Shown one piece after another: positions 38,873 to 62,335 of a stretch of DNA of 64,000 nucleotides. The stretch lies in the IMG/VR virus record IMGVR_UViG_3300037313_000650. One strand, written 5' to 3'. Positions within the stretch are counted from its first letter, which is position 1; every line of letters starts with the position of its first letter. Both the position numbers and the translations under genes were made by a program. Source of the DNA: a virus (lineage: Duplodnaviria; Heunggongvirae; Uroviricota; Caudoviricetes). The notes under the pieces are model-generated. The model was not told the origin of the DNA and did not search any database. It worked only from the letters and a program-made list of their open reading frames with translations.

Positions 38873-39169
38873 CTATGGAGTAGTAGTTGTAGTGGTTGTA
38901 CTAGTTGTTGTAGTAGTACTTTCATTGATACTATAGATATCAGTCCAAGTATCAGTAGCACTATCATAGTACTCCAATCTACCTAATGCTTTGTTGTACT
39001 TTACAGGTACGCTATCAGCCATTGCATCACAACAAGGGTCTGCAAATGGTACATTAAGACTGTTCAAGATTTCTCCAAGCATTTTTTGGAAATTATAATG
39101 ACCGGGAAGGTCTTTTCTGGTTTTCTTGAAGAAACCAATTGGTACTAAATAACGTAATTTAAGTGCCAT
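38873..39169 (-). CDS. small protein with C-terminal poly-Thr tract
   Basis: DPCCD motif; ends STTTTTSTTTTTTTP. Confidence 0.75.
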   Translation of the reverse strand: MALKLRYLVPIGFFKKTRKDLPGHYNFQKMLGEILNSLNVPFADPCCDAMADSVPVKYNKALGRLEYYDSATDTWTDIYSINESTTTTTSTTTTTTTP

Positions 39170-39213
39170 AATATAAAAATCTAGTTTATAGATAACTAGT
39201 AACTTTTACTTAT

Positions 39214-39345
39214 TTACTTTCCCTGTCCTCTATATTTACTTTGAGGAGCAGCTTTTTTCTTTTTAGACTTTCTTGCTTTACCTTTTTTCCTCTTTCCGAA
39301 GGTCACTTTGTAGGATGAAGCAGTAGATGATTTAGATTTTGCCAT
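39214..39345 (-). CDS. 43 aa highly basic peptide ending YRGQGK (below track cutoff)
   Basis: MAKSKSSTASSYKVTFGKRKKGKARKSKKKKAAPQSKYRGQGK*; TAATG-coupled to the GT6 gene. Confidence 0.8.
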   Translation of the reverse strand: MAKSKSSTASSYKVTFGKRKKGKARKSKKKKAAPQSKYRGQGK

Positions 39346-40097
39346 TATATAAAGTGGATTTGTCCGTTTTGTATATCAAATAATTTATATCTATTTTCCA
39401 GAATAGATAATTTTAAATCTGTTATATCCAGAGAAGTTTGTCTTGTTTCTCCTAATCCACCCTTATCACTAACCAAGAATACAAAGTCTTCACATGGAAT
39501 AACTTTAGATGGTGGATGGAAATGAAATTCTCTGTTTATGTACGATTCATCATTTACAGAGGGTTCATAATTAATCTTTTTATCCATATCCTGATAATAA
39601 ACCATAGTTTTACAGAATTCCATTAGTTTATTATAACTGCCCCCGAAGAAAGCACCATAATAATAAGTTTGTGGAAGTCTTGTATTTTCAGGAACGAAAG
39701 CTTTTGATCTTGGATTTCTATCATATGCCTTCTTATCTTTCATCCAACCTCTGTTACCATAATGTTCGCCACCTACCATATCTGCTACAAACCATTCTTC
39801 TGTAAAGTCTTTATCTACATTAGTATCTGCATCAAAGTAGAATAAATAATCATCCATTTCCAGTATAGATAATATATTCCTGAATTTGGAATTAGTTCCA
39901 TCTACCCAATTATCATGCTTTGTAGGGTAAAAAGTTACTGGAAAATGTTGTGGTAGATAATCTTCAGGGTCTGTATCTGAAAAAAAGTGGAACTGTATAT
40001 CAGCTTTACCTTTATAATGATGCATGAATTTTCTCATGAATCTTATACCTAAAACAAAATAACTGTTAGTAGCTATAATAACTATTCCAATTCTCAT
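39345..40097 (-). CDS. GT6-family (ABO-like) glycosyltransferase
   Basis: IVIIAT, FYFDAD (DxD), YYYGAFFGG and DESYIN motifs. Confidence 0.8.
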   Translation of the reverse strand: MRIGIVIIATNSYFVLGIRFMRKFMHHYKGKADIQFHFFSDTDPEDYLPQHFPVTFYPTKHDNWVDGTNSKFRNILSILEMDDYLFYFDADTNVDKDFTEEWFVADMVGGEHYGNRGWMKDKKAYDRNPRSKAFVPENTRLPQTYYYGAFFGGSYNKLMEFCKTMVYYQDMDKKINYEPSVNDESYINREFHFHPPSKVIPCEDFVFLVSDKGGLGETRQTSLDITDLKLSILENRYKLFDIQNGQIHFI

Positions 40098-40639: not shown

Positions 40640-40641
40640 AT

Positions 40642-43962: not shown

Positions 43963-44388
43963 TTAAGCTGTTATATCACCAAATAAATACCATTCATTAG
44001 TGCCAATCTTTATAAGTGTAGCTCCTGAATATTGTGTTGAGAGCTTTAGTGCTCCCCCAGAACTACGAATTGTTACACCTGAACCAGCTACAACTGTAGT
44101 TTGACCAGTACCATATTGAGCAATAGTGATAGATGTTCCTATAGAAAAAGCAACAGTTGAGTTAGAAGGCACAGTAAGATTATTTGCTGTAGCTACATTC
44201 ATCTCAACTAATTTTGATGCATCATCTAGTACAAGGATATAACTAGCTGTTTGTCTATTGGTAGTTATTAATTTATCTACCTTTGAACTTACAGAAGATG
44301 ATATGATAGAGGAAACATACTTTCTAATATCATTATCTTTAAAAAATTCCTTTACAGATGAGGATAAAAAATCACGTAATATTTTCAT
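43963..44388 (-). CDS. tail-fibre-associated small beta domain protein
   Basis: AFSIGTSITIAQYGTGQTTVVAGSGVTI...QYSGATLIKIGTNEWYLFGD, a common fibre-tip module. Confidence 0.7.
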   Translation of the reverse strand: MKILRDFLSSSVKEFFKDNDIRKYVSSIISSSVSSKVDKLITTNRQTASYILVLDDASKLVEMNVATANNLTVPSNSTVAFSIGTSITIAQYGTGQTTVVAGSGVTIRSSGGALKLSTQYSGATLIKIGTNEWYLFGDITA

Positions 44389-45347
44389 ATTTTAACTTCT
44401 TTTATTGCATTTACATAAGCTAATGAAGCTGAATTTATACTAGCAGAAATATCTTGCCCTATCGGAGACCTATTTATCCAAGCACCTTTGTAGAATACTC
44501 CGGGTGTTGTATTAGAAGCACCAGCATTATGATAGATTGGCTTTTTATTATATGTTTCCATACTATCTGTAGCCCAACTAAAGTCCAATTCAGGAGTAAT
44601 TCCTGTTTGTATTCCTCTTTTCCAGAGGGAGAAATTCACTGCCCACATATCAGCACACCAGCTTTGAAAACCGAGAGCTTCTGTTTTGAAATATCTGTTG
44701 TTTATAGAACCAGTTATATTATGGAAGAATGACCTTCTTATATCTATGCACATTCCTTCTACATCTTCCCAAAAGTTATAATCTATATTTTTTAAGAGAT
44801 ACTGAGCACCACCAGTTTTAGCATCATAGGATTTTATTGTATCTACAGTAATCCCACCTATTCTTGCAAGTTCTTTTACAGCTTCATTGTTTTCTATATT
44901 TCCTTGAAGTTCCTTTCTATGTAAGTAAGAATAATCTAAATAACCAGTGGTGTTTGATTCCCAAACTATATCATCCTGTATTAGTTTTTCAAAATCTGGT
45001 AGTTCTCTAAAGATTATATCAGCATCGTGATAGAAAAATACTTTATCCTTTAACTCTTCCTGATACTTCTTAAAGTGTTTCTTAAATGAATGTGGTCTTA
45101 ATTGCGGGATATATAATCCTAGATTAACTCCTGAATCTTCATAGAAGTATATATTTACTTCAGAGTATTTCCTTTTAAGAGCCATCCATCTTGGCAAATG
45201 AGTACTTCCTTTATGATACCAAACAATTATTTGCATCCTATCAGAAATACCAAATTTTCTAAAGTTTACTATTTGGACCTCAGTTTGCCACACAAAATAA
45301 GGTTCATGTGATACAGCTTGAAGAAAAACTAAATTTTCAGGAATCAT
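44385..45347 (-). CDS. GT-A glycosyltransferase resembling HPAT/SERGT (GT95/GT96) protein O-glycosyltransferases
   Basis: FYHDADIIF (DxD), GGAQY and WCADMWA motifs, compared from memory with DPDxxF / W-x-x-EMY. Confidence 0.6.
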   Translation of the reverse strand: MIPENLVFLQAVSHEPYFVWQTEVQIVNFRKFGISDRMQIIVWYHKGSTHLPRWMALKRKYSEVNIYFYEDSGVNLGLYIPQLRPHSFKKHFKKYQEELKDKVFFYHDADIIFRELPDFEKLIQDDIVWESNTTGYLDYSYLHRKELQGNIENNEAVKELARIGGITVDTIKSYDAKTGGAQYLLKNIDYNFWEDVEGMCIDIRRSFFHNITGSINNRYFKTEALGFQSWCADMWAVNFSLWKRGIQTGITPELDFSWATDSMETYNKKPIYHNAGASNTTPGVFYKGAWINRSPIGQDISASINSASLAYVNAIKEVKI

Positions 45348-45356
45348 ATTGGTTTA

Positions 45357-46373
45357 TTATACATTATGTACAGTAGTATAAGTGTATTGATTTCCAGTAG
45401 ATGACATACTGAAATTAGCTATATATCCTGCATTATTCACCTTAACATATAAATCTTTTATCTTCCAAGAACAATGATTACATACCCATCTTCCCCAACC
45501 GTTTGTAGGGTCAAAACCATCTTGCCCTACTGGAATTGGAGCAGTATAGTTTAGTGTATTTGCAGGGATAACTACTTTGAATGGTGTTTGGCTACCCATT
45601 GCATTAGGATTATCATAATACGGATGACGATAATAACCTTGTCCTGTAGGTTCAGAATAAAGATTGTATCCCATATATGGATATCTTAAATCAGGATTAA
45701 TTGGAGGTCCACCATAATCTAATATTTGACCTATTAATAATGTGATTGGGAAACTGAATGTTCTACTTAAACTTACAGTAAATACAGTATCTCCTTGATG
45801 ACTACAGTTATCATCTGTACAATTTATTCTTATCTGTCCAGTTATAGGAATTAAAGGAGCTATAGTAGTAGTGGTTGTAGTACTTGTAGTACAAGGAGTA
45901 GCGGAAGTTAGGGTGAATCCCGGTGGAATATTTATAATTCCACTACCTTGAAATGTTTTTGTCTCTCCAGCAACTACGGTAAGTGTAACAAGATTATATG
46001 CAGCATCTATATATAACACATCTTCAGGTTGTGTAGTGTTATTAGTTGTACTCCATGAGCAACAAGCAAGGCCACAAGAAAGGTCTAATTCTGGAGGAGT
46101 TCTAAAATTTACATAAAATGTATCTCCACCACAAGCAGGAACTACTTTTACTATATAATCTGTACCATCACTTAAAGAAGGTATTATTAATGGAGTAGGT
46201 GTATCAGAACCATCAATTAAAACTCCATCAGGTCTTACAAGTTGACTACTTGTTACTAAAGTATAACTTCCAGATACATCGGCAGATGTAGCTAACCTAT
46301 AATAAATAGCTACAGTCTGATTACCAGCAGGAATAGATGAAAAGGTTATATTTGTTATTGTTATAGAAGCCAT
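45357..46373 (-). CDS. putative virion protein with FN3/Ig-like N-terminus and poly-Thr linker
   Basis: N-terminus similar to 46376..47629; CTTSTTTTTT tract; several Cys. Confidence 0.6.
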   Translation of the reverse strand: MASITITNITFSSIPAGNQTVAIYYRLATSADVSGSYTLVTSSQLVRPDGVLIDGSDTPTPLIIPSLSDGTDYIVKVVPACGGDTFYVNFRTPPELDLSCGLACCSWSTTNNTTQPEDVLYIDAAYNLVTLTVVAGETKTFQGSGIINIPPGFTLTSATPCTTSTTTTTTIAPLIPITGQIRINCTDDNCSHQGDTVFTVSLSRTFSFPITLLIGQILDYGGPPINPDLRYPYMGYNLYSEPTGQGYYRHPYYDNPNAMGSQTPFKVVIPANTLNYTAPIPVGQDGFDPTNGWGRWVCNHCSWKIKDLYVKVNNAGYIANFSMSSTGNQYTYTTVHNV

Positions 46374-46375
46374 AA

Positions 46376-47629
46376 TTACGGTGAAGTTGTAGTTGTTGTA
46401 GTGCTTGTGGTTGTTGGTGCTAATTCACCACAATTCAATGTTAATACTCTCTTACATGTATAACTACCTGCACCACCAGATGTATCTAAGAACCAACCAG
46501 AGCTACAAGTTGCAATATCTAGTGAAGTACCTACTAAATCTGCTGTATCAAATAAGATATTCAGTTGTGAATCATCTGTAGCAGCAGATAATTCTGCGGA
46601 TGTATTATCGTAAATTGCAGCAGCAAAAGCATCATTTGTTGAACCATCACCTACAGCAGAGAAGTTTAAGTAGTTAGTTCCTGCTAGTAAATTTACAGGA
46701 AATAAGTGCCAGTAACGGAAGTTTTCAGTTGGTGGATTGGTATTTCCACCAGCAGGACTAGTACTTGTAACACTAACTATGGTCGTTGAACCAACTTCAT
46801 TGTTTAGTACAACTTTAAATGTGTTATCTCCCCCTATTCCTATATATACTGTTTTAGGTTCAGATATAATGATTGGAATTGTAATTTCAATATGTGAGCC
46901 AGCAGTAAGAGGGTCTTTTACCCCATCACAATCTGTATCTACCCAAATACCTCTTCTGTTGAACGGACCTGTAAGAGTACCAGAAGTATTCAACCATTCA
47001 GGAACAGTGCTTAAAAGTGTATATGCACCAACCAATTGTGTAGTATAACCTGCATTATACAATTTAGTACCGTATATTGCATAATTATTTGAAAGAACAG
47101 AAGGAGCAAAACAATATCCAGAATGGATAGTTGTCAAACATCCAGAACAAGTTTCTTCTTTTACGCAACCTGAACCATCAGGTTTAGCAGTGTAGCCAGT
47201 ATCACAAGCACAAGTAGTAGTGGTAGTAGTGGAACTGGTTGTTGTAGTTGTAGTCGTAGTGGGTGCTGTCCCTTGTACAGTACCATTAACTCCAATAATA
47301 ACAGCACAATCTGGAGGCAAGGAAGGAATTGTAGTAGTTGTTGTAGTACTAGTAGTTGTAGTAGTTGTAGTTGTTATATTTATATCTTCAGGGTAGAAAG
47401 CTACTCCACATGAGGGGGCAGCTTCTATGGTAATACCTTCTGTACATTCAGCACTACTATAATCTACAGTTACTGGAGTTATTAAAGTTCCATCAGGATT
47501 TACCTGAACATTATCAGAAATCAAGTTCCAATCTCCTGTACTGTTTTTGCATCTCCAGTATAGAACGAATGTTCCACCTATTGCAGGACTATGAACAATC
47601 TTTGATATGGTGATTCTTCTATCTAGCAT
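46376..47629 (-). CDS. putative virion protein with three poly-Thr tracts, an EGF-like Cys motif and a jelly-roll-like domain
   Basis: Three T/S runs; CACDTGYTAKPDGSGC; IGIGGDNTFKVVLN. Confidence 0.6.
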   Translation of the reverse strand: MLDRRITISKIVHSPAIGGTFVLYWRCKNSTGDWNLISDNVQVNPDGTLITPVTVDYSSAECTEGITIEAAPSCGVAFYPEDINITTTTTTTTSTTTTTTIPSLPPDCAVIIGVNGTVQGTAPTTTTTTTTSSTTTTTTCACDTGYTAKPDGSGCVKEETCSGCLTTIHSGYCFAPSVLSNNYAIYGTKLYNAGYTTQLVGAYTLLSTVPEWLNTSGTLTGPFNRRGIWVDTDCDGVKDPLTAGSHIEITIPIIISEPKTVYIGIGGDNTFKVVLNNEVGSTTIVSVTSTSPAGGNTNPPTENFRYWHLFPVNLLAGTNYLNFSAVGDGSTNDAFAAAIYDNTSAELSAATDDSQLNILFDTADLVGTSLDIATCSSGWFLDTSGGAGSYTCKRVLTLNCGELAPTTTSTTTTTTSP

Positions 47630-47635
47630 TTTATT

Positions 47636-48112
47636 TTAAATTACTTCCCCTGTCATTTCTATATCAGTAACAACTGGACAAGGAGGAGCAGTTGTTGTAG
47701 TAGTTGTACTTGTGGTAGTTGTTGTAGTTGTAGTTGTAGTAGGAGGGCAGCAAGTACAATGATTGTCTATAATAAATTGTACTTTATCTTTAAAAGATAA
47801 ACTTGTCCAATCTTCAGGTAAACAAGTAAGACTTACATCTGCAAGTAAATTATCTAATGTAATAGATATATCTACTGTAGATTTAGTTGAAACACCATTT
47901 TCATCAATATAAGTAATGATTAATTTACCGTCTTTGTATTCAAAACCAGAAATAAAAGTGACAGTTTGACACTTCTTTATATCTATACAAATATCATCTA
48001 ATGGGCAATTTATTATTGCATCAATAGCATCAACTATACCCTTTCTCCATTCATACGGAATAGAGCATAATAATTTGTCCAGTTCCTCTTTTGAATTACA
48101 AAATATACTCAT
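47636..48112 (-). CDS. Cys-rich protein with poly-Thr tract (paralogue of 48112..48525)
   Basis: 10 Cys; CTCCPPTTTTTTTTTTSTTTTTT. Confidence 0.7.
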   Translation of the reverse strand: MSIFCNSKEELDKLLCSIPYEWRKGIVDAIDAIINCPLDDICIDIKKCQTVTFISGFEYKDGKLIITYIDENGVSTKSTVDISITLDNLLADVSLTCLPEDWTSLSFKDKVQFIIDNHCTCCPPTTTTTTTTTTSTTTTTTAPPCPVVTDIEMTGEVI

Positions 48113-48525
48113 TATGGGGTAGTTGTTGTAGTTGTAGTGCTGCTAGTAGTAGTTGTAGTTGAATTACAATTACATTGAGCAGTAAGAATTGCTGAAATTC
48201 TCTCAGAGAAAGTCATGTTGTCCCAATCAGATTGACTTGCTACACATTTAGGGTCAATATCATTTAAGCTATTATTTATAACCTGTGCAAAGTCAAAAGT
48301 TCTGGTGTATTGTACTTCACTTTCATCTTTATATGTAATATTTATAGATGTACCGTCTATCTCAAAAGGTGAAAGAGATGTTAAAGTTTCACAATCTTTA
48401 ACCTTTTGACAGTCAATAGTATTCCTATCTTCCTGTATTTTAAGAAGTACTTTGATTATTTCATCTCTCCATTTTGAAGGAAGAGATTCTAAATATCCAG
48501 ATAGATTATCTACACAATTAGACAT
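48112..48525 (-). CDS. Cys-rich protein with C-terminal poly-Thr tract
   Basis: Aligns by eye with 47636..48112 (SLPSKWR vs SIPYEWR; KDCETLT vs KKCQTVT; DWDNMTF vs DWTSLSF). Confidence 0.7.
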   Translation of the reverse strand: MSNCVDNLSGYLESLPSKWRDEIIKVLLKIQEDRNTIDCQKVKDCETLTSLSPFEIDGTSINITYKDESEVQYTRTFDFAQVINNSLNDIDPKCVASQSDWDNMTFSERISAILTAQCNCNSTTTTTSSTTTTTTTP

Positions 48526-48592
48526 AAATTAATAGTTTAAAGACCTATAAAGTCCTTATCTTAATATAAGAAAAATATAGGAAATAAACAAA

Positions 48593-49738
48593 TTAATTTA
48601 ACAGGGGTTGTATAGCATCTATTACATCTGTAGGGGTGATGTTTTTAGTACATTCAAATTGTTTTTCAGTTCCTTCAAACTTAGGACACCAATTCCATGA
48701 CCCGTTATCTTGAAGTTTAATCCAGTTAAAACAACCTGTACACTTATTTTCAGGAGCAGATATTCTTATACAATCTTTCATTTCTGTATATGGTAGTGAA
48801 AATCCAGAGATTAGAACTGTTGGTACATCTAGTGCCCAAGAAAGCCAAGACAGCCCACTCCCTATTCCTATGAAGAATTTAGAGCGTTTCAGAAGAAACA
48901 TTATAGTTTCTATCCTATGGTCTGGGGGATAAATTACACCTATTGGATTCCTATTTCCATTATGACCATCTTTCTCTTTGGAAAGAAGAATTACTTCATA
49001 TCCTCTATCCTTCAAATAATCTACTACTACTTGCCAACCTTCAGGGTTATTCCAATATTTTGCTTGAGAAGTTGAATGATTTGCTATACAAACATATTTA
49101 GTTGCCGGAGCTATAGAAGCTATTTCTTTTAGTTTAGGTTTAAGTTCTGTATATGGTAGACCTAGAATATCAGAAGCATTCTTCTGCATAGGGAAAGCTC
49201 TAGGGTCCAAGGGATGCCTGTTGTGATTTACTCTATTATTTTCATCATAATCCCAACCTATTCTATACCAAGCAAATATATTAGGTAATACAGTTCCCGG
49301 TTCTATGAAAGTTATATTTGGATATTGATCTTTAAATAAATGATTGTGAAACGTTATGACGAATAACTGACAATTGTGTTTCTTCTGAAATCTGTCTGTA
49401 TATGGAAACCAAGCTAGAGTATCTCCAAGAGCAGAACTACCTAGTTCCACTACTACCCTTTGGTTTTCAAGATTCAGGTGATAATCATATACTTTTTTAC
49501 CGGTTCTTGTATTATGTATAACGATATGATATGGTTGATAATATTCAATGAATGGGTGAGTAAATCCACTCCTTCCTGTAATTACAGAAGAATGTATTGT
49601 TTTATTTCCCACTTTAAATTCTACAAAGTAATCATCGTCACTATCTCTTACTTCTACATAAGCTTTTCTTACAAAGTGATTTATTATAGTTTCTGTAGAT
49701 GTTAAGTCTGCTATTTTCAAGTTATTGTAAATACTCAT
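48593..49738 (-). CDS. TibC/Aah-like (autotransporter O-heptosyltransferase family) protein glycosyltransferase
   Basis: ALGDTLAWFPY..RFQKKHNC, YVCIANHSTSQAKYWNNPEGW, FIGIGSGLSWLSWA, CTGC...WCP...QFECTK motifs. Confidence 0.85.
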   Translation of the reverse strand: MSIYNNLKIADLTSTETIINHFVRKAYVEVRDSDDDYFVEFKVGNKTIHSSVITGRSGFTHPFIEYYQPYHIVIHNTRTGKKVYDYHLNLENQRVVVELGSSALGDTLAWFPYTDRFQKKHNCQLFVITFHNHLFKDQYPNITFIEPGTVLPNIFAWYRIGWDYDENNRVNHNRHPLDPRAFPMQKNASDILGLPYTELKPKLKEIASIAPATKYVCIANHSTSQAKYWNNPEGWQVVVDYLKDRGYEVILLSKEKDGHNGNRNPIGVIYPPDHRIETIMFLLKRSKFFIGIGSGLSWLSWALDVPTVLISGFSLPYTEMKDCIRISAPENKCTGCFNWIKLQDNGSWNWCPKFEGTEKQFECTKNITPTDVIDAIQPLLN

Positions 49739-50663: not shown

Positions 50664-50667
50664 ACGC

Positions 50668-50675
50668 CAAATATA
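50668..50675 (-). promoter_or_regulatory. possible -7 promoter element TATATTTG upstream of the GT genes
   Basis: CAAATATA on the + strand in the gap between fibre and GT4 genes; very close to the ATG, no -33 element. Confidence 0.35.
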
Positions 50676-50694
50676 CAAAATATATCATTAACTA

Positions 50695-53600
50695 TTAATT
50701 ATTTCCTATAATAAGCCAATTAGCTCCGTCACTTTGCATAGTTACATATTTCCATTGTGCGGATAATATATAAGAAGTTGCACCATCTATGGTTTGTGAT
50801 GAAGTTGTACTGACTGTTAAATTATTAGCCCCTGCATTTATGCGTTTAATAGTGTATATTTTACCAGAGTTTCCTACTGCGGTAGGTAGGGTAATTGCAA
50901 AAGCAGCAGTTGTAGTATCTCCTGTTATAGTGTTATCTGTTATTAAAGCTGTGTATGTACCACTTTTAGCTAACAAACTACTACCAGTAATTATAACGTT
51001 ACTAGCATCAGAAGTAACTACTATATTATTTCCACCTTTTATATTTTTTAATGTATTACCTCTTGTACCTGCTGCTGAAGAGTGAGTTGATGTTGCAATT
51101 ACTCCAGAACCACTACCAGCAGCATCTGTAAGTGTATATTGTTCACAACTTATAGCTCTTACCCATCTAGTACCATCAGATGCAATCCACCATGTTACTC
51201 CATTAGGAATAGTGGTTGCAGAACTACTAGCATTGTAATATGCACCTCTACTCAGTATAACATTTAATGTGCCTTGATTTACTACACAAATCACTCTACC
51301 CCTGCAAGTTGTGGGGTCTGGAATAGTACAAGTTACATTACCTGAGAATGGTTCAAATACAACATAGTTTTCACCAGTAGCTACTGTATAGTTAGTTGCA
51401 CCCGGAATCACAGGATTACCAAATGTTGTAGGTTTGGTAAGTACATTACCTGAAGCATCTACACCTAGATCAGCTACTACTGAAGTTCCATTAAAAGAAG
51501 TTTCAGAAATATAACTATCCAAAATTAATTGACCACTACCTGTAACAGTTAGTTTTCTGGCAACTGTACCTGAATTAGCTCCCCAGATTTCAAACTGTGA
51601 AGTTCTCGTTGCAAAAGTTACATCTGTCCATTTGGATATTATTTGATTAGCTGTATAACCAGATCCATCTGATGTTTTATGCGAAAAATCAATAGAACCA
51701 CCAATTCCATTAGCTGCTGTACCTGAAGTGCTCCTACTAATTTGAATCATTGAAGATACAGAGTTAGCAGTAGAGCTAAAATTAGAAACAAGTAATGGTA
51801 ATCCTGTATTTGATTGAATATTTGTTCCAGTTCCAGATGTACTCTTTAGATATGCACCTGTCCCAGAAGTAGATTGTCCATAAAATCCATAACCACTACT
51901 AGAACTACCATATATACCTATTACTACTCCGGTTCCTATACCTGCAATAGCTGCTGAAGAACTATTTGTTCCAGTAGCAGTTGCGCTAAATCCTACAGAT
52001 AGTGCTGAAGTGTTTAACGTGTTGTTTATTTGTAGTATACCATTAACACTGCCATCAGAGAATGAACCATTCAGAATCATTTTATTTGTTCCAAATGTAT
52101 GTGTCCTATTTGTAGATAAGGTTAAATCTGTATTTACAAAGTTGGTATCAGCACCTGAAGGTGAAACAGTAATGACATTACCTGAAGAGTCCACAGCAAG
52201 ATTAGCTACTGCGGTTCCAGTAAATGCAGATGAGGATGTATAAGAATCAAGAATTAATTGTCCACTACCTGCTATTGCTATTTTTCTGGCAACTGTACCT
52301 GAATTAGCTCCCCAAATCTCATATTGAGAAGTATATGTAGCAGATGTAACATCTGTTAGCTTACTTCTTAAATAAGTTGCATATTTAGTTGTACCATTAC
52401 TTGATTTTAACTTGAAGGCTATAGAAGCTCCAATTCCATTTGCTGCTGCATCTGAACTGTTTTTAGTAAGAAGAATCATATCATCAAATCCACTAGCATT
52501 ACCCGCAGACATAGAACCACCTAAAGATAATCCAGAGGTTGTTGAAGTTGATAATGCTGCACCTGTTGTTGAGGTCGCAAAAACGGCAACACCTATACCA
52601 TTGTTGCTTGCACCAAAAGCGTTATTACCACTATCTATACTTATACCTAATACGGAACTTCCACCACTAGTTGTATTTATAAAGTTAAAAGCATAACCAG
52701 AACCTGTATAACTATTATTGATAGTTACCTGATTATTACCTTGTGTATGTATTCTAGCTCCTGTAAAAGTTAGGTTGGTATTACCAAAGTTCGTATCTGT
52801 ACTACCAGTAATAGTTATATCTGTAGCTCCTGTTGTAGCATTATCTACAGCAGATACAGTAGCTCCTATAAAGTTAATCTTTGATCTTGGTGTAAGGTCT
52901 ACACCTTCATCCTGAACAGTTATAGTTGCACTTGTAGGAGATGTACCTGAAGTTCCAGAAACACCAGAAGTACCAGAGGTTCCAGCAGCACCATTTATAC
53001 CAGAAGTACCGCTTACTCCGCTAGTTCCAGATACACCGCTTGTACCATCTATTCCAGACGTACCGTTAATACCTGAAGTCCCATTTACTCCTGATGTTCC
53101 ACTAACACCCGATGTACCACTAACGCCGCTACTACCAGATGTTCCGCTTAAGCCACTACTTCCTGAAGTTCCATTAATTCCCGAAGTTCCACTAGTACCA
53201 GATAATCCTGAAGTACCAGAGACTCCGCTAGTACCACTTATACCGCTGGTTCCATTGGTTCCACTTATTCCTGAAGTACCGTTAATTCCACTTGTACCAG
53301 AAGTACCACTCAATCCATTTATACCACTAGTACCAGAAAATCCGCTTGTTCCTGATGTTCCGGCAGTTCCAGTAGTAGGGGGAGGAGGTACAGGCATTCC
53401 TTGTAGGCAGATATTATCTAAAAAGAATCCAAAATTTCCATTATTAGAAGATACAGTAATAAGTAATTGGTCTACGGTTGCACTTGCAGGAAGTGAGAAT
53501 GCAGAGAGAGGAATAGATATATTTTGACAAATTGTTGTGTTGCTACTGTCAAATCCATACAACCCATTAGAAAGATTTACAGCAGCACCTACATTTGTAC

Positions 53601-54645
53601 CAGATAGACGAAATCTAAATACAATCTTTCTTGGATTGTTAGGATTACCGCCCCAAGTACCTTTTGATTTTATATCAAATAATAATATAGTTAAGCTACT
53701 TAATGAAAATGCTCCTCCCGGTCTTGTTAATAAAATATTATCACCATTTTGTACACCACTACCTTCTATAGATTTAGCTCCACTACAAGGGCCATTTATA
53801 GAATCTGGATTTAATCTAACAGAATTAGAAGATATACTCGTCCATTCTGTATTTTCTTTATATATACATTCACCAGAAACAGTAGTGGGTTGTGTAGTTC
53901 CGGCTTCCACTACAGCAAAGGATAATTGTAATTGTGTAGCAGGGTCTATGGGTGCTTGTGCAGGGTTATCAGAAGGAGTACCCTGTAATACGTGAACTGA
54001 ATTTGTTACATCTACAATGAATGTGTCAATCCTGTTGTAAGTAACATCAGCAGGAGAAAGTGTTATAGTAGTAGCAGGAGAAGTATACTTAACACCATTT
54101 ATATAATATGTTGCAGCAGAAATATTATAAGTATATCCAGAAACCCACGTTACGATACCACCTGAAACTACATCATCCTTTATTATATTAGGGGCATAGA
54201 AACCATCTGGTAGTACTGTTATTGAATTATTTGGAAAAGAAGAAACAGGTACATTTCCTAAAAGTGGATTTTCAGGTGTACCATCTCCAGACAAGTCCAG
54301 AGTTGCGGTATCTTGAGTAACTATACCTTGAATACCAGCTTTTCCCTTCATTTGGAAATTTACACCATCGTATGAAACTAGAATTATCTCACCAGATAAG
54401 ATATCATTAGCTACTAATGGAGTGGATACATTTTTTACAATAGGTTTTTCACCTAAACCATTAACGTTTAGAGTGGCAGCACCAGTGTTTGCACTACTAG
54501 CTTTAAACCATACTTTTAAACCTTCTGTATAAGATTCTGGAGCAGGTCGCAAATCAACTGTATAATTATTACCACCTGTAGTATCTAATACATAGGATGA
54601 TACTTCATTCGTTGCATTAGTGTGTATGTTTCCAAATATTCTCAT
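50695..54645 (-). CDS. tail fibre with GTS collagen-like repeats and a 243-aa internal duplication
   Basis: 1316 aa, Gly/Ser/Thr-rich; N-terminal module shared with 56873..58246; C-terminal ITLPTAVG module shared with 59018..62335. Confidence 0.8.
52940..53372 (-). repeat. Gly-Thr-Ser coding repeat tract
   Basis: GTSGxS/GxNGTS triplet periodicity with degenerate codons. Confidence 0.9.
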
Positions 54646-56870
54646 AATATTTCTATAATTTTAGGAGTCATACCATAAACTACAGGGTAACTTGTACCTG
54701 TTACGGTAGCATCCTGAGAGTTCATCACTGTACTTCCTAATTGAAAAGTTTTTATTCTTATATTTGTACCTGTTGGTAGAGCCAAGTCATATATACCAGT
54801 TACTTCTGTAAATCCTACTGTTGCTACATTCTGTACAACAAATTGAAAATATTTTGTAGAAGTATTTGGGAAAGTGTCTTCTACTCTCCAGATTGCATAT
54901 ATTGTTTCACCTGTATCTTTCTTGAATCTTAGTACTTTTATATTCCCTATACTCAAGTCAGCATCAGGTTTATAGTCCCTATATTGTTTTAATTGAGATA
55001 GATAATCTCCTATGGGTCTTCTTTCATAAGTTGGGTTAGTATTAACACCGGGAGGATTTGGATATGTTAAACCACCACTTTCTGCATATTCATCATTCAA
55101 TAAGGACATGGTATCAAACTGTACATAGGTAGAAGAACCATCTCCTTGATAATTATTGTATATCTTAAACCAATACGATCTGTCTATTCCATTCATTGAG
55201 AATAGTAGAATACTTCTTATACCCCATATAGCTACTACTTCCTTTTTGCTTCTTCCGTTAATTTCAGGAACACCGAATACTGAATATTCATGATAATCAA
55301 ATCCCCACTCAGATAACCAAACTTCTTTTCCCTGAGCAAACTCATTGGAATAGGATATGAATTTCTTTAGAACATTTAAATCTCCCGAAAGTTCTAGTGG
55401 CATAGCTGTAGTAGCCTCACCGTATTGACTAGAACCACCATTTGTAGAATATTTGTGATAGTTTATTACATCAAATGGTACATCTACCACACCATCTATA
55501 TAACCACGATTCTCCTTACTCCAATCATAAATACCTTTCAGTACATCTACTATTGCTACACCAAATCCCGGTATTACTACTTTCATTGTAGGGTCAGCAG
55601 TTTTAATACCTACACCTACACCAGCACCAAACCCCGCATCTAAAGTTCCTTTATGTCCATCATATACAGCACTTAAATAAGGAGCCATTTGATAACCAGA
55701 CATGTAGTGATCTTTAGTAGCCCAATTCTTATCTTCTTCATTTCCTAGTTCTATATAGTTTAATGTATTTAAACCTTTCTTAATTACACCAGCAGGAATC
55801 CAGAATTCACTAAATTGATGTTGTGTTCCAAACAAACTATCTGGTATTGATGTATTTCTACCATATCTTCCTGCAAATACAAATCCTACTCTTGCTCTAT
55901 TTTTATATACAGTAACAGAAGTTTTGTTATTAGCATCTGCCTGAATAATAGGATTGGTGTGTTCCCAAAAATTAGGATCGGTAGAATTGTTAAACATGTG
56001 GGAAGGATTGTTCAGGATAGTAGGTAGAGGAACTATACCATTATCTTTACATATCTGAAATAAACTATCATAATAGAAATCTTGTGTTGAAGGTTCATAA
56101 GACCATTCATTTTCTGTAGGTTGCAAATACTTCTCTTCCATATAAAAACGCAGAGAAGTAAGACCCATTTCTAAGAGCCTATTAAATTTTGGTAAATATA
56201 CAGTCGTAGTATTATATGCTACATCATTCTTCATTACATCCCATACAAAACCATTTGAACCAAACTGTCTTCCTAGTTCTACTTTTGGTCTACTGTAAGT
56301 AGGTTCAGGAACATTATCATAATCTCCTATAATTCTTAATCCTGCCCCATAGAAATCTCCTCCACCTAAATGACCATTATTATCAGCAAAACCTTTTACT
56401 ATCAATCTATCTGTAGGAAAAGGTGAAGCAACATTCATTACTATATCCTGTCCAAACAAACTACCGTCATATTGACCTATTTCTACAAGAGAATTGTCAT
56501 TTTTATTTACTAGATAAAACTTTGTTGGGGTAAATCCAGCAGGACCATATTTATCACGTACAATTACTTTTTTAACCACAGGATTCCATCTTTCAGGAAA
56601 TTTACACACAATCATGTGTGGAGAGTTAAACATTGCATAGCCGGGAACAAAGTTGGTATCTTCATTATTATCCAACCATGCAGTTACAGGACCAGCATTA
56701 TTATCTTGCCAAAAGTAATCTTCTACTATAGGAAATTCAGCATTCAATAGTCTTTGTGGACTAGGATTAGACACAGTGAAATCATATAGCTTCAGTTTAT
56801 ATCCACCATTTATTGTGTATGCGGTTCCTTGATTATTTGATACCAAGCCGCTACTATTTACATAATGCAT
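54642..56870 (-). CDS. clan GH-A (GH5/GH39-like) glycoside hydrolase, putative virion depolymerase
   Basis: IELGNEED (acid/base), INYHKY and VWLSEWG (nucleophile) motifs; sits between fibre genes. Confidence 0.7.
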
Positions 56871-56872
56871 AA

Positions 56873-58246
56873 TTAAGCGGTTTTAACAAAGCTTGGTCCA
56901 TTAATAACTCTGGCTTCAGAAGTTGTATTAGTTTTAAATAATTCTTTTCTTACTTGACCTATAGAAATAGTAGTATCATCAGAAGTATAATTCACTCCAC
57001 CAGATGAAGAAGCTAAATAATATATTGTATTTGCAGTGAGTCCAAGCCCAGATGTATTGATTTTCTGCCCTGCTTGTACAATCCTAAATGTATTTGCATC
57101 TACTACTTGGGAAACAATACCATCTGCATAGGAAGCATTATTACTAGTAACGGCTTGGCATCTTTGCCATATACCAGTGCTATCTTTATATACAGCCCAA
57201 CCTACACCAAAACCATGACTTGTTTTAACATATTCTTCATAATTTCCACCAGAAATACCAGAAGTACCGCTTGTACCACTTGCTCCAGAAACACCTGATG
57301 TTCCTGAAGTTCCAGTAAGTCCATTAGTACCACTTATACCAGAAGTTCCTGAAGTTCCTGCAACACCTGATACACCATTTATATTTACAGCCCAAGAGCT
57401 AAATGTTCCAGTTCCTGTATTTGATACAGAATTTGCTTGCATTGCGCCAGTAGCAGGATTATAAGTAATAACTGTTGCTATAAAAGAACCTGTAGGATTA
57501 TTTACAACTGCTATTGTTTGACCTGTTGTATATGCTAGATTAGGCTCTACTGTAAATACTTTAGATGTAGGATGTGCAGTGGGTATACTCATTCCTGTAT
57601 TAGAAGTAGTAGCATATTTATCTCCATTCAATCCAGAAGTACCTGATGTTCCTGATACTCCTGATGTTCCACTAATTCCACTGGTTCCAGAAAGACCACT
57701 TGTACCACTACTACCAATTATACTTACTCCGCTTGTACCACTAGTTCCATTTGCACCATTTGCACCATTGATTCCTGAAGTTCCGTTAACTCCAGACGTT
57801 CCTGTTCTCCCTGAAGTACCAGATGTACCAGAGATTCCAGAAGTACCACTACTACCAGAAACACCACTAGTCCCAGATGTACCTGCAACTCCAGTTCCTA
57901 TAGCAGTTATTACATTCTTTAATTGGAAATTCACTCCATCATATGCAACATCTACTATTTGTCCAGCTAAAATATCTCCAGATGAAAGGTCAATATTTAC
58001 ATTCTTTTTGATAAGTTTTGGACCTAAACCGTTTACATTTATACTACATACACCTGTGTTTGAACTTGCTGCTTTAAAAGATATACGTAAACCATCTGTA
58101 TAAGAAGTTATAGCAGGTCTAGGGTTGACAATATAATTATTAAGTGTTCCTGTATCTTGTATATAGGAAGATTGTTCTACAGATGTTGCTACACTCGTAT
58201 TACCTTTAAATATTGACATAAATAAATTAATTAAATTTTTAATCAT
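56873..58246 (-). CDS. short tail fibre with GTS repeats
   Basis: N-terminal NTG..SINVNGLG..YDGVNFQ module and two GTS tracts. Confidence 0.8.
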   Translation of the reverse strand: MIKNLINLFMSIFKGNTSVATSVEQSSYIQDTGTLNNYIVNPRPAITSYTDGLRISFKAASSNTGVCSINVNGLGPKLIKKNVNIDLSSGDILAGQIVDVAYDGVNFQLKNVITAIGTGVAGTSGTSGVSGSSGTSGISGTSGTSGRTGTSGVNGTSGINGANGANGTSGTSGVSIIGSSGTSGLSGTSGISGTSGVSGTSGTSGLNGDKYATTSNTGMSIPTAHPTSKVFTVEPNLAYTTGQTIAVVNNPTGSFIATVITYNPATGAMQANSVSNTGTGTFSSWAVNINGVSGVAGTSGTSGISGTNGLTGTSGTSGVSGASGTSGTSGISGGNYEEYVKTSHGFGVGWAVYKDSTGIWQRCQAVTSNNASYADGIVSQVVDANTFRIVQAGQKINTSGLGLTANTIYYLASSSGGVNYTSDDTTISIGQVRKELFKTNTTSEARVINGPSFVKTA

Positions 58247-58999: not shown

Positions 59000-59017
59000 T
59001 TTGTTTAATTTTTAATA

Positions 59018-62000
59018 TTAACTATTAATTATATACCATTTTGTACCATTAGATTGTACCCATACCCATCCATAAGCTGATGCAATACTATAAGAAGTAC
59101 CAGCATCTATATTCTCACTAGCAGCAGCAGCTACAGTAAGTGTGTTACCCGATCCATCTATCTTCTTGATAATATATATCTGCCCTGCTCTACCAACAGC
59201 AGTGGGAAGAGTTACAGTAAAACCAGCAGTGGATACATCACACAATATAGTATGATCTGTAGCAACAACTGTATAAGCACCTACCTTAGCAGTAGTATTA
59301 ATAGCTTGTATATGACCCTGACCTGTGATTTGCGCTGTAGCTGTGAGGGTGCTGTTTATAGTTACCCCACTTTGGAAGATAGCTGCACCATTCTTGTCTA
59401 TGGTGAAGGCTGCTAACTTGTTAGCTACGTTAACACCAAATCCACCACCGGGAGCACCAGCCCACATAGCAGATACGAACACCATTCCATTCTGGTCTAC
59501 TGATAAACCTGCAAAGTCAGTGTTAGTAGTACCATACAGTATAATCTTCTGCCCTGCTACCGTTGCTGTATTAGCAGTAGTTTGAAGGGCAGTTGGCAGT
59601 ATTGTAACAGTACTAGTACCTGATGCGTATAAACCACCATTAGCAAGTACATTACCGTTAAACTGACCTATATAGTTTCCTTGACTTGCACTATATCCTG
59701 TTAGTAAAGTAGCTGATGCTGTACTAGATAAAATAAGAGAACCATCCAATCTACTAGTTCCATCATCTACCCATAATGCATAGTTATTTGTACCGCCAGA
59801 GGCTGAATTCTCGATATAGAGAGTAGCAGTGTTGGTAGTAGTAGCTCCACCATCTGTAATGGTCAGAGCTTTGATAGCTAATTGAGCAAACAATGGATGG
59901 GTTCCTGAAGCGGCTTCTGTTACACCTGTTGTACCTATAATTTGAGTAGCGTAAGCAAATCCTACTGAAATATTAAAGTTAGAAGAAGGTCTAATGTTTA
60001 CATAGTTGGAAATATTTGCTGCTCCCCCTATCAGGAGTTGTGATGCAGTATAAGTATTGCCCCCATTAGCAGTAAATGCAGTAAAACCGGGATTTCCTGA
60101 TGTAACAAAACCGCCAGAAGTGATTGTATTAATGACTGACAGGTTTCCATCAAACTGAACATTCCCATTATCTACCCATAGAGCATAATTATTGGTTGCA
60201 CCTGTAGCTGCACCTTCAATATATAAAGTAGCTGAGTTAGTAGTAGTACCAGCACCAGCAGTATTTATAGATAAAGGCTTAATAGCCAATTGAGTAAATA
60301 AAGGATGTGTACCTGATGATGCTTCTGCAACAGTTTGTGTACCTATAATATGAGAAGCATAAGAAGTATTAGCTGATGCTGAAGCACTAATACTATTCCT
60401 TTCCATTATTCTGTATTGTGTATTACCAGATAATAATTGAAGATATGCAGAAGATGAAGGTGAAGTTAAAGAGTTATTTGGAGAAACATTAAGTGAACTA
60501 TTCTCCCCAATAGAGTCTGATGAAAATCCTCCAACAAGATATGTATAACCGTTAAATGTCTTTTGCCCATTAAATCCTTGATTACCTGTGGTAAACAATC
60601 CTCGGGCTGTGATTGAGGCATCGGGGATGTTCAGTGTGGCCGTTCCCCCCAATGCTACAGGAGAACTTGACCAGTTAATATCAGTTCCACTAGTTCCTGT
60701 AGCTAAAGATATAGATGAATTAGCAAGTTTAGCATTGGTAACAACACCTGTATCTATAGTCATAACGGTGCTACCACCACTTATTACTATATCTCCATAG
60801 TCTCCATCAGCAGGAGATGTACCGCTTGTACCAGAAGTCCCACCTAAACCTGATGTTCCATTAATTCCAGATGTTCCATTTATACCACTAGTCCCATTAA
60901 CTCCACTGGTTCCACTTGTACCATCAATACCACTAGTACCTGAAACTCCCGAAGTACCACTTACACCGGAAGTTCCTGCTGCTCCTGTAGCACCGTCTAC
61001 ACCTGATGTACCACTAATACCAGAGGTTCCATTAAGTCCATTAACACCTGATGTTCCGTCTATACCACTAGTCCCATTAAGTCCATTGATTCCTGAACTA
61101 CCACTTGTTCCATCAATTCCACTGGTTCCACTTGCACCATTGATACCTGATGTACCAGAAACTCCTGAAGTTCCAGAAACACCAGAAGTACCTGATACCC
61201 CGCTAGTTCCATTGATACCTGATGTGCCTGAACTTCCAACTACTCCATCTGCACCATTAACTCCAGAAGTTCCAGAGGTTCCATTAACACCACTACCATT
61301 TAATACAATTCTACCAGCAAAACGATTATCTGGAGTCTGAGATACATAAAATGTTACTGAATTATTATCTGCACTTCCTATAACATCTTCTACAAATACA
61401 CCTTTTGGTAAACCAGTTTCATCCCAAAAGAAAGGAACAAGATTAGGTGTACTCATATTATGGGTAAATGTTATAGCATAACGACCACCTGAAGGTATTC
61501 CCCAATCAGTTGTAGCATTGAAAGTCATTTCCTTTGCAGCAGAAATGCCTGATGTACCGCTTGTACCAGAAGTACCAAAGAAAGTACCATCAACACCGGA
61601 TGTACCTGAAGTTCCTGTAGTTCCAGATGTACCAGTGAGACCTGAAGTTCCAGCAGTACCGCTAGTACCTGAACTACCTATTATACCATCTACACCTGAT
61701 GTACCGGATGTACCTGTAAATCCAGAGGTTCCAGATGTACCTGAAGTTCCATCAACAGCCTCATTACCACTATGTCCACCATTTATAACAAGTCTCCCTG
61801 AAAACCTACTATCTGGCACTTCAGGAACATAGATTGTCATATTATTTTCATCTGTTTCTTCTATTATTTCAGCAAATGCACCTCTTGGTTTAGGTGTAGT
61901 GCCTTCCCATATAAAAGGAACTAATTGGTAGCTGTCCAGATTGTGATCGAATGTTATATAATAATAGCTACCTCCATATGTATTAATTGGACCTTGCCAA

Positions 62001-62335
62001 TCTTCAATACTGAATGGTCTGGAAAATCCATCAGGGCTTGTACCAGAAGTACCATCTGTTCCACTAGTGCCTGAAGTTCCATTAATCCCTGAAGTACCCG
62101 AAGTTCCAGAAGTACCATGTCCACCATCTATACCACTTGTTCCAGATGTACCTGAAGTACCGCTTCTACCAGATGTACCTGAAGTACCCTGATAAGCACA
62201 TATCTTCTTAAGTATAGAAATTAAGCTTTCACCCTTATGTGTTTCTACACAAAGGTTTAACCCACAATCAGCTATAATCTCTGATAATTTAAGACCTGTG
62301 CCTTTAACCAGTAAATATTCTTTATTTTCAGACAT
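59018..62335 (-). CDS. long tail fibre with multiple GTS repeat tracts and duplicated modules
   Basis: 1105 aa; GTS tracts; duplicated ITFxHN...VPF-W domain; duplicated SGTHPLF...NNYALWVD domain. Confidence 0.8.
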   Translation of the reverse strand: MSENKEYLLVKGTGLKLSEIIADCGLNLCVETHKGESLISILKKICAYQGTSGTSGRSGTSGTSGTSGIDGGHGTSGTSGTSGINGTSGTSGTDGTSGTSPDGFSRPFSIEDWQGPINTYGGSYYYITFDHNLDSYQLVPFIWEGTTPKPRGAFAEIIEETDENNMTIYVPEVPDSRFSGRLVINGGHSGNEAVDGTSGTSGTSGFTGTSGTSGVDGIIGSSGTSGTAGTSGLTGTSGTTGTSGTSGVDGTFFGTSGTSGTSGISAAKEMTFNATTDWGIPSGGRYAITFTHNMSTPNLVPFFWDETGLPKGVFVEDVIGSADNNSVTFYVSQTPDNRFAGRIVLNGSGVNGTSGTSGVNGADGVVGSSGTSGINGTSGVSGTSGVSGTSGVSGTSGINGASGTSGIDGTSGSSGINGLNGTSGIDGTSGVNGLNGTSGISGTSGVDGATGAAGTSGVSGTSGVSGTSGIDGTSGTSGVNGTSGINGTSGINGTSGLGGTSGTSGTSPADGDYGDIVISGGSTVMTIDTGVVTNAKLANSSISLATGTSGTDINWSSSPVALGGTATLNIPDASITARGLFTTGNQGFNGQKTFNGYTYLVGGFSSDSIGENSSLNVSPNNSLTSPSSSAYLQLLSGNTQYRIMERNSISASASANTSYASHIIGTQTVAEASSGTHPLFTQLAIKPLSINTAGAGTTTNSATLYIEGAATGATNNYALWVDNGNVQFDGNLSVINTITSGGFVTSGNPGFTAFTANGGNTYTASQLLIGGAANISNYVNIRPSSNFNISVGFAYATQIIGTTGVTEAASGTHPLFAQLAIKALTITDGGATTTNTATLYIENSASGGTNNYALWVDDGTSRLDGSLILSSTASATLLTGYSASQGNYIGQFNGNVLANGGLYASGTSTVTILPTALQTTANTATVAGQKIILYGTTNTDFAGLSVDQNGMVFVSAMWAGAPGGGFGVNVANKLAAFTIDKNGAAIFQSGVTINSTLTATAQITGQGHIQAINTTAKVGAYTVVATDHTILCDVSTAGFTVTLPTAVGRAGQIYIIKKIDGSGNTLTVAAAASENIDAGTSYSIASAYGWVWVQSNGTKWYIINS
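60821..62190 (-). repeat. three Gly-Thr-Ser coding repeat tracts separated by globular modules
   Basis: Tracts at about 60821-61290, 61545-61750 and 62035-62190. Confidence 0.85.

Follow-up and report, generated by a model that had tools for sequence, protein, structure and literature searches.

To our knowledge, the coating of a phage's own proteins with sugars has been shown experimentally only for mycobacteriophages. The mycobacteriophages Che8, Corndog and Myrna reportedly encode cytoplasmic glycosyltransferases (GTs) together with their structural genes, and these enzymes are said to place sugars on extensions of virion proteins. Virion glycosylation in this group is established (Freeman et al. 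2023, Cell Host Microbe 31:1216, as presented in PMC12582341). The present analysis concerns a 64,000-nucleotide stretch of DNA (the window) from a virus of the Caudoviricetes, IMG/VR record IMGVR_UViG_3300037313_000650. Its late fibre operon holds four GT genes, five genes for proteins with poly-threonine (poly-Thr) runs and three genes for collagen-like tail fibres. This operon probably encodes two modules with which the phage glycosylates its own proteins.

The collagen-like Gly-X-Thr repeats of BclA, from Bacillus anthracis spores, carry O-glycans. TibC and Aah (PDB 4RAP/4RB4; eLife 2014, PMC4358343), which are bacterial autotransporter heptosyltransferases (BAHT), are cytoplasmic O-glycosylases that modify Ser in a repetitive, extended protein. 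Heptose transfer to Ser of an autotransporter passenger and assembly into a dodecameric ring are features of this family. In plants, the peptidyl-serine alpha-galactosyltransferase SERGT1 and the hydroxyproline O-arabinosyltransferases (HPATs) modify runs of hydroxy-amino acids in extended repeats, Ser-hydroxyproline4 (Ser-Hyp4; PMC8012813, PMC4908140), which are analogous to poly-Thr. Chloroviruses have virus-encoded capsid glycosylation and mimiviruses have glycosylated fibrils, their own multi-domain GT and methyltransferase enzymes decorating surface proteins (PMC4691112, PMC12866637). A search across ~8.4 million papers found nothing linking GT95/GT96-like or TibC-like enzymes, poly-Thr tags or crAss-like phages to phage protein glycosylation. 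An initial annotation of this DNA remarked that its author knew of no description of such a system in crAss-like Bacteroidota phages.

The source record is a complete viral genome of 164,315 bases with direct terminal repeats, and the window is the reverse strand of its bases 96867-160866. The nearest matches to the phage's ribonucleotide reductase, at ~42% identity, come from crAss-like gut phages and one cyanophage. GC skew switches sign at ~38.8 kb in the window, and from there to the window's end every gene lies on the minus strand, in a dense block of fibre genes, GT and poly-Thr genes and a lysis cassette. Between positions 50695 and 43963, neighbouring genes, all on the minus strand, overlap or lie 2-67 bp apart. 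The whole genome was scanned for open reading frames (ORFs) of at least 50 amino acids (aa) with a strict poly-Thr run, defined as at least 6 Ser/Thr including at least 5 Thr; this returned exactly five, all in this block. These five, together with all GT genes detected in the genome, are packed into ~12 kb of the 164 kb, a clustering that is far from chance. Beyond the four GTs, no other passed threshold in the whole-genome scan; a sub-threshold Glycos_transf_2 match (13.8 bits, E 0.004) lies in a 355-aa ORF outside the window (G000:C1:56541-56723). The enzymes and poly-Thr proteins are as follows.

44385..45347, minus strand: SERGT/HPAT-like GT-A glycosyltransferase of 320 aa, phrog_4417 family; proposed poly-Thr O-glycosyltransferase
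39345..40097, minus strand: GT6 glycosyltransferase; proposed partner or extender of the SERGT-like enzyme
48593..49738, minus strand: TibC/Aah-type protein O-glycosyltransferase (BAHT family); proposed initiator on the Ser/Thr of fibre repeats
49746..50678, minus strand: GT4-type glycosyltransferase (GT-B, Glycos_transf_1); proposed partner or extender of the TibC-like enzyme
48112..48525, minus strand: pT137, with a Cys-containing N-domain of ~120 aa and a C-terminal poly-Thr tail (S T5 SS T7 P, then stop)
47636..48112, minus strand: pT158, a paralogue of pT137 (E 2e-15), with T10-S-T6 near the C-terminus
46376..47629, minus strand: pT417, with an N-domain of ~80 aa, two internal poly-Thr linkers, a globular domain of ~200 aa and a C-terminal poly-Thr tail
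45357..46373, minus strand: pT338, sharing its N-domain with pT417 (32% identity, E 5e-5), with one internal TTST6 run
38873..39169, minus strand: pT98, with an N-domain of ~80 aa and a C-terminal S T5 S T7 P tail

Checked against the sequence, the coordinates and gene calls of the initial annotation are correct. It had listed four GT-like genes and five poly-Thr proteins, and both sets are confirmed, with the right family named for each of the four enzymes, as is its layout: four poly-Thr genes are contiguous between the TibC-like and SERGT-like genes, and the fifth comes after GT6. The GT4, TibC/Aah-type and GT6 proteins pass curated thresholds and keep their motifs, and the fourth enzyme is backed by its DxD motif and its fold. 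Family membership, intact catalytic residues, gene order, conserved neighbourhoods and natural fusions are all direct observations on these genes and their relatives.

The SERGT-like protein matches a large, uncharacterised phage family (phrog_4417, E 6e-55). The Pfam HPAT family (PF23452) scores 15.7 bits, below the cut-off of 23.9, and no other Pfam family reaches threshold; 5 of 29 homologues match HPAT, the best with E 5.7e-4 and all of them below the cut-off. A Y-x-D-x-D motif (Y106-D108-x-D110) is invariant across the alignment of the 29 homologues. The AlphaFold 2 (AF2) model has a predicted local distance difference test (pLDDT) value of 94.1 and a predicted template-modelling (pTM) score of 0.91. 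In a fold search of AFDB-SwissProt, its top eight matches are Arabidopsis SERGT1 and seven HPATs, HPAT1-3 included, with template-modelling (TM) scores by query of 0.57-0.63 over residues 1-318, against 0.41-0.51 for other GT-A folds; matches in the PDB are to generic GT-A only. As judged from this model, "HPAT/SERGT-like" denotes likeness of fold, not family membership, and the label chosen in the initial annotation holds in the first sense and fails in the second. The SERGT-like family numbers 932 clusters at 50% identity, and a profile search covered 1.84 billion proteins, with its best 150 matches listed.

Poly-Thr ORFs closely accompany this enzyme. The SERGT-like seed set comprised 80 of the 284 viral loci found, with enzyme identities of 35-66%. 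Poly-Thr ORFs occur in 75/80 of these loci, within 500 bp of the enzyme gene in 62, at a median gap of 32 bp, and always on the enzyme's strand (206/206). After dereplication the pairing persists in 29/33 clusters at 90% identity and in 13/17 at 70%. Loci seeded on the TibC-like gene contain no strict poly-Thr (0/23), apart from one marginal TTSTTT run, so poly-Thr goes with the SERGT-like enzyme and not with TibC. The same pairing is found in cultured phages of three host groups. In Chryseobacterium phage MA9V-3 the SERGT-like gene is immediately preceded by two genes for poly-Thr proteins, and in Lactobacillus phage Semele by two genes for proteins ending in (T5-S-T3-V-K-P)n-type tails. In phiCTP1, a Clostridium phage, the SERGT-like gene comes after that of gp18, a protein without a name in the record whose gene immediately precedes those for the tail chaperones and tape measure; poly-Thr forms the C-terminal end of gp18 and likewise of a small protein from the head module.

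The GT6 protein scores 55.6 bits for PF03414 (cut-off 25) and aligns over its full length to BoGT6a (PDB 4AYJ, E 3e-12). Its DxD motif (FDADTN) and catalytic Glu (NDES) are invariant in 6 homologues. The bacterial NCBIfam subfamily Gltr_6 was ruled out, at 74 bits against the 250 needed. Among 80 loci seeded on GT6, 43 hold a SERGT-like gene, which lies directly beside GT6 in 37/80; in 35 of these 37 the SERGT-like gene comes first on the shared strand and ends at most 150 bp before GT6, and in the other 2 it begins shortly after GT6. Of the GT6-seeded loci, 31/43 with a SERGT-like gene contain poly-Thr, against 5/37 without one (p 1e-7). Moreover, a single database protein, P0188, is a natural SERGT-like::GT6 fusion: its residues 1-300 share 33% identity with the SERGT-like protein of the window (E 1e-49), and residues 310-558 share 50% with the window's GT6 (E 2e-84). 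Other fused SERGT-like forms include P0220, which has its own T-A-P repeat and poly-Thr stretch, and P0124, P0149, P0193 and P0209, with methyltransferase-like or GT2-like N-terminal halves.

The poly-Thr proteins combine conserved domains with their runs. With the runs masked, pT137 and pT158 share a 120-aa domain with five conserved cysteines, homologues of which occur on 5 related contigs (8 loci), either alone with a poly-Thr tail or at the head of 470-750-aa proteins with several poly-Thr linkers. The N-domain of pT98 likewise heads variable proteins of 230-550 aa in relatives, with four paralogues in one contig. The central domain of pT417 has homologues in poly-Thr proteins encoded directly upstream of SERGT-like genes (L113, L120, L125, L127, L128). 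No relatives of pT338 were found in viral contigs. An N-domain profile scan returned only the five related contigs already known, with no domain-without-enzyme case to serve as a control. ESM Atlas gave weak leads for pT417 and pT137 (beta-sandwich/PA14/rhamnosidase-N-like, TM ~0.4). Conserved heads followed by variable distal parts suggest a resemblance to fibre or decoration proteins, and the phiCTP1 case and the fibre-gene context help to suggest a place in the virion. Thr codons in the runs are mixed and in genome-typical proportions, so poly-Thr is maintained at the protein level; DNA-level repeats or recombination sites were ruled out on the same grounds.

Many of these runs are preceded by cysteine. 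A Cys lies no more than 6 residues upstream of the first run in 100/162 distinct poly-Thr proteins, where ~16% would be expected from a Cys content of 2.9%; the set comprises the poly-Thr ORFs of L025-L104 and those of the window at 48112-48525, 47636-48112 and 45357-46373. Examples are ECCNY-T7, CNCN-S-T5 and CTCCPP-T10, and Pro, Ala or Val comes after the run. This upstream Cys may be part of a tag recognition signal, or of a metal or disulfide knot. In L036, L042, L044, L054, L063, L087 and L099 (~11000-11800), the SERGT-like gene is directly followed by families of tiny proteins of 50-90 aa. They consist of a conserved head of ~48 aa (MGSINSRPLKAFVRFDGSGRIV...ECCN) followed only by (T7-V/A-A-P) repeats, and they often occur as tandem paralogue pairs.

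The TibC-like protein exceeds the cut-offs of the equivalog model TIGR04414 (263.6 bits against 200) and of PF01075, the GT9 family (35.5 against 22). It aligns to TibC (PDB 4RAP, E 2.6e-54) over ~313 residues, query 64-376 to TibC 68-383. Residues were mapped from this single pairwise alignment, read against the TibC paper (PMC4358343). The equivalent of catalytic Asp110, a position marked by the D110A crystal variant 4RB4, is kept (LGDTLAWFPY aligns to LGDLLGWFPY), and those of the iron-finger residues Cys339/342/358/370 are all aligned (C-x2-C ... WCP ... FEC). The neighbouring GT4-type protein passes PF00534 marginally, at 28.6 bits against 26.4 (29.5 in the genome scan), matches phrog_2170 'glycosyltransferase' (E 8e-11) and keeps the EX7E motif (ELNPLCVKE). 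Translation of its gene probably begins not at the listed TTG but at an ATG five codons further on (MQNLIY..., MQNLIYIVPHLSTGG), which gives a typical-looking GT-B N-terminus.

In other phages, the homologue of the TibC-like protein usually forms the C-terminal domain of a larger enzyme of 670-1330 aa. Such enzymes also hold a GT4-type domain homologous to window 49746-50678 and often GT2 and FkbM/Methyltransf_24 domains. The GT4-homologous domain is fused to the TibC-like domain in L017, L018, L023 and L024, and GT4-type (Glycos_transf_1) domains are also present in L003, L009, L010 and L022. A DNA search of positions 44000-51000 against cultured phages gave a sole match, a 167-bp patch in a multidomain 'FkbM methyltransferase' gene of a Microcystis phage. 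None of the nine module proteins, the four GTs and the poly-Thr proteins, has a membrane or signal-like segment, so sugar transfer would take place in the cytoplasm of the infected cell, as for TibC. Membrane-bound seroconversion-type GTs were ruled out because hydrophobic segments are absent.

The fibre genes lie just upstream of the two enzymes of this pair.

59018..62335, minus strand: tail-fibre protein of 1105 aa with 77 Gly-Thr-Ser-type triplets; candidate substrate of the TibC-like and GT4 enzymes
56873..58246, minus strand: fibre protein of 457 aa with 44 Gly-Thr-Ser triplets in three arrays
54642..56870, minus strand: fibre-block protein of 742 aa between two fibre genes; no PHROG or Pfam match
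50695..54645, minus strand: tail-fibre protein of 1316 aa with a single array of 48 Gly-Thr-Ser triplets at residues 426-569; directly upstream of GT4

The triplet counts bear out the long GTS repeats that the initial annotation had noticed in three fibres. In all three, these repeats are collagen-like Gly-X-Y arrays without any proline, and Ser and Thr fill 55-83% of their X/Y positions. The three proteins match PHROG tail-fibre and collagen-like minor-tail families, with E down to 1e-33 for the 1105-aa fibre, and the GT4 gene begins 17 bp after the 1316-aa fibre gene. The association of such fibres with TibC was examined in the SERGT-seeded loci, which had been picked blind to both the TibC-like gene and the fibre ORFs. 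A proline-free, Ser/Thr collagen-like fibre ORF occurs in 13/20 loci with a TibC-like gene, compared with 6/60 without one (Fisher p 3.5e-6). Dereplication changes the counts to 6/4/1/22 at 90% (p 0.001) and 4/0/0/13 at 70% (p 0.0004). The TibC-seeded set, 23 loci of which many are short, has a Ser/Thr collagen-like ORF in 12/23, and in L004, L005, L007, L008 and L009 this ORF starts 64-71 bp downstream of the TibC-like gene. When no filter for Ser/Thr richness and lack of proline is applied, about half of the loci in each of the two sets have collagen-like ORFs.

Two initiator-plus-partner modules are the better reading of these loci, because poly-Thr tracks the SERGT-like enzyme, TibC tracks collagen-like fibres, and the fusions pair GT4 with TibC and SERGT with GT6. 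The late fibre operon would then give rise to two soluble, cytoplasmic protein O-glycosylation modules acting on phage proteins before assembly. In the first module, the DxD-bearing, GT-A, SERGT/HPAT-like enzyme would put the first sugar on poly-Thr hydroxyls. The poly-Thr tracts would act as tails or as linkers in the five proteins, which are small or modular and have conserved N-domains reminiscent of attachment modules, and GT6, from the retaining alpha-1,3-Gal/GalNAc-transferase family, would add onto the first sugar. In the second module, the TibC/Aah-type enzyme would glycosylate Ser/Thr of the proline-free (Gly-Thr-Ser)n segments in the three tail fibres, and its GT4-type partner would lengthen the glycan so begun. 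The outcome would be mucin-like, bottle-brush fibre segments. In this model the substrates, step order, sugars, virion location and biological benefit are inferred. The initial annotation had proposed initiators and extenders co-located with Ser/Thr-rich substrates, and co-location in related loci supports this well; its single wiring, with the TibC-like and HPAT-like enzymes both starting on poly-Thr, gives way to two pairs.

Several points weigh against the two-module reading, which is proposed from the genes of this phage and its relatives. Known members of GT6 and GT4 have lipopolysaccharide and other glycans, too, among their acceptors. About 4/17 dereplicated SERGT-like clusters have no strict poly-Thr run, ten loci have a Ser/Thr-rich IPT-like protein in its place, and the compared loci are non-independent samples. 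Additionally, 11/23 TibC-seeded loci show no collagen-like ORF in the DNA covered, which in many is short. In the window, GT6 is 4.3 kb from the SERGT-like gene, with fibre-like genes and the lysis cassette between them, whereas the two are adjacent in most relatives. The AF2 model of the pT137/pT158 N-domain is poor (pLDDT 65.9, pTM 0.34), and none of the five poly-Thr proteins matched a structural-protein family in Pfam or PHROG, nor did pT417 and pT137 in ESM Atlas. The sugar donor also raises difficulties. In the single pairwise alignment, the ADP-heptose-binding residues T226, K230 and W305 are kept, but the equivalent of R286 is Ile. No heptose or other nucleotide-sugar genes, including SIS, epimerase and nucleotidyltransferase genes, were found in the phage genome. 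Because Arg286 is replaced, heptose is an unsafe assumption, and the donor of the TibC-like enzyme may not be ADP-heptose. Since the phage lacks SIS, epimerase and nucleotidyltransferase genes, donor sugars would be drawn from host pools.

The same genes could be wired as a single integrated pathway, in which all four GTs build one glycan on the poly-Thr proteins and perhaps the fibres, with the TibC-like and SERGT-like enzymes as alternative initiators and GT4 and GT6 as extenders. This is unlikely, although the window's gene order fits it: GT4 and the TibC-like gene directly precede four poly-Thr genes, and the SERGT-like gene comes directly after. The two modules are often neighbours elsewhere too, which leaves room for a merged pathway; 20/80 SERGT-seeded loci also hold TibC-like and GT4 genes, and in 10 GT6-seeded loci all four families form one cluster bracketing a Ser/Thr-rich repeat protein of ~680 aa. 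However, poly-Thr follows the SERGT-like enzyme with or without TibC and is absent, under the strict definition, from all 23 TibC-seeded loci, and the fusions join GT4 to TibC and the SERGT-like enzyme to GT6, never across pairs. The nearest relative, L025 (a 165-kb contig), keeps the SERGT-like, GT6 and poly-Thr genes, including the GT6-then-poly-Thr order, with no TibC or GT4 within 10 kb. This relative is also what might be expected if only the SERGT-like/poly-Thr pair, with or without GT6, glycosylates protein, and the TibC-like enzyme, GT4 and perhaps GT6 remodel host surface glycans or another non-phage target. That account is a shade less likely again. Lipopolysaccharide or glycans are the usual targets of the GT4, GT9 and GT6 families, PHROGs classes the GT4 and GT6 families as 'moron, auxiliary metabolic gene and host takeover', and the R286 substitution suggests altered specificity. 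Yet the TibC-like protein scores above the cut-off of the Aah/TibC equivalog, whose members are known solely as protein O-glycosyltransferases, keeps the catalytic and iron-finger residues, and is statistically associated with Ser/Thr collagen-like fibre genes. All these genes encode soluble proteins inside the late fibre operon, and GT6 is fused to the SERGT-like enzyme in P0188.

The poly-Thr proteins could also be glycosylated without entering the virion, as abundant soluble or released mucin-like proteins made late in infection, for example as decoys, adhesive matrix or defence blockers. The five match no structural family, and the tiny 50-90-aa proteins of relatives, a 50-aa domain plus (T7-x-A-P)n, are unusual for structural proteins. 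This is nevertheless distinctly improbable, for the poly-Thr genes sit between fibre genes of the late operon, the N-domains of pT98 and pT137/158 head variable longer proteins in relatives, like fibre adaptors, and phiCTP1 carries the tag on proteins at tail-tube and head-decoration positions. Finally, the poly-Thr and Gly-Thr-Ser tracts could be unmodified flexible or triple-helical spacers, and the GTs could act on DNA or small molecules. Many phages have collagen-like fibres and Thr-rich linkers without these GTs, and collagen-like ORFs before filtering are as common in one locus set as in the other; DNA-glycosylating phage GTs are known from a preprint (bioRxiv 10.1101/2023.12.21.572611). 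The neighbourhood associations and fusions are so strong and specific, however, that little credence is left for this idea, and the closest characterised relatives are protein O-glycosyltransferases, by sequence for the TibC-like enzyme and by fold for the SERGT-like one.

The two-module reading may reach beyond this phage. Tentatively, and with doubt slightly ahead of confidence, phages of several host phyla could share a modular glyco-tagging scheme, in which an extensin-type GT-A enzyme, frequently accompanied by GT6, recognises a short poly-Thr tag, and a TibC-type enzyme with its GT4 partner recognises a Gly-Ser/Thr collagen repeat free of proline, forming a common but undescribed layer of particle biology. 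The phage of the window would run both modules together and so place different glycans on different fibre proteins; its single complete genome carries the two side by side with all candidate substrates. If true, many uncultured and cultured phages coat fibres and small surface proteins with sugars through their own enzymes, which would affect how phages stick to hosts, mucus and particles, their protease resistance and their immune recognition. The acceptors would be simple, portable sequence tags, offering compact enzyme-plus-tag pairs for glyco-engineering. Because the cultured phages MA9V-3, Semele and phiCTP1 carry the SERGT-like/poly-Thr module, the claim is directly testable.

Some related loci differ in organisation from that of the window. 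L115-L118 and L131-L136 (~4400-10750) hold, in this order, a GT4::TibC fusion, a 676-679-aa Ser/Thr-rich repeat protein, a SERGT-like gene and GT6, with no strict poly-Thr. Their contigs are large, at 92-330 kb, and L115 has a family-B DNA polymerase-like gene, as judged by eye. Some other GT6 matches come from giant-virus bins (GVMAG), and the system may extend to viruses of eukaryotes.

Around the module genes of the window, other members of the block can be recognised. One adjoins the SERGT-like gene.

43963..44388, minus strand: 141-aa protein whose matches (phrog_18179, E 8e-30; phrog_8780, E 1e-22) are to the C-terminal domain of proteins from phage fibres and minor tails and of virion structural proteins

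Since this protein matches structural families, the structural-gene block extends past the SERGT-like gene. Between that gene and GT6 lies a probable lysis cassette (40094-41627, minus strand). Its members are a 181-aa protein that matches phrog_1259, a tail-lysozyme family (E 4e-27); a 94-aa protein in which stretches appear hydrophobic by eye; and one of 234 aa whose N-terminal stretch also appears hydrophobic. A 43-aa ORF that is extremely basic (Lys/Arg-rich) sits between GT6 and pT98 (39214-39345, minus strand), its ATG overlapping the GT6 stop. Pfam gave zero matches above threshold for the seven proteins between the SERGT-like gene and GT6 and for three upstream fibre-block proteins.

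Compared with described systems, each enzyme resembles a known relative and departs from it. The SERGT-like protein shares the GT-A fold and DxD motif with the plant and algal enzymes SERGT1/SGT1 (GT96) and HPAT1-3/RDN/PLENTY (GT95), which are its best full-length fold matches. Identity is only 13-14%, however; the plant enzymes are Golgi membrane proteins, unlike the soluble phage enzyme, and its acceptor would be Thr in place of Ser or Hyp. In the pairwise alignment, the TibC-like enzyme keeps the catalytic Asp110, three of four sugar-binding residues and the four iron-finger Cys of TibC/Aah. Unlike that system, the phage genome contains no autotransporter gene, the likely acceptor being the Gly-Thr-Ser repeats of the fibres; the R286 equivalent there is Ile, ADP-heptose genes are absent, and the enzyme has a GT4-type partner that is fused to it elsewhere.

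GT6 enzymes, such as the human ABO transferases, alpha-1,3-galactosyltransferase and Bacteroides ovatus BoGT6a, are matched by the phage protein in full-length alignment and in the invariant catalytic Glu. Unlike BoGT6a, which was deposited as metal-independent (4AYJ), the phage GT6 keeps a DxD motif, FDADTN. It also differs from GT6 enzymes acting on blood-group-type glycans in being operonic with, or fused to, a protein-directed GT, and its acceptor would be a peptide-linked sugar. Chloroviruses, mimiviruses and BclA are further parallels that differ in enzymes and linkages; the first two are viruses of eukaryotes and the third comes from a bacterial spore, although some of the compared loci may themselves belong to giant viruses (GVMAG bins). 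As in the mycobacteriophages, the GTs are encoded with structural genes, and sugars would be placed on extensions of virion proteins. Unlike those phages of Actinomycetota, this is a crAss-like, presumably Bacteroidota phage with different enzyme families, and its acceptors would be poly-Thr tags and collagen-like repeats.

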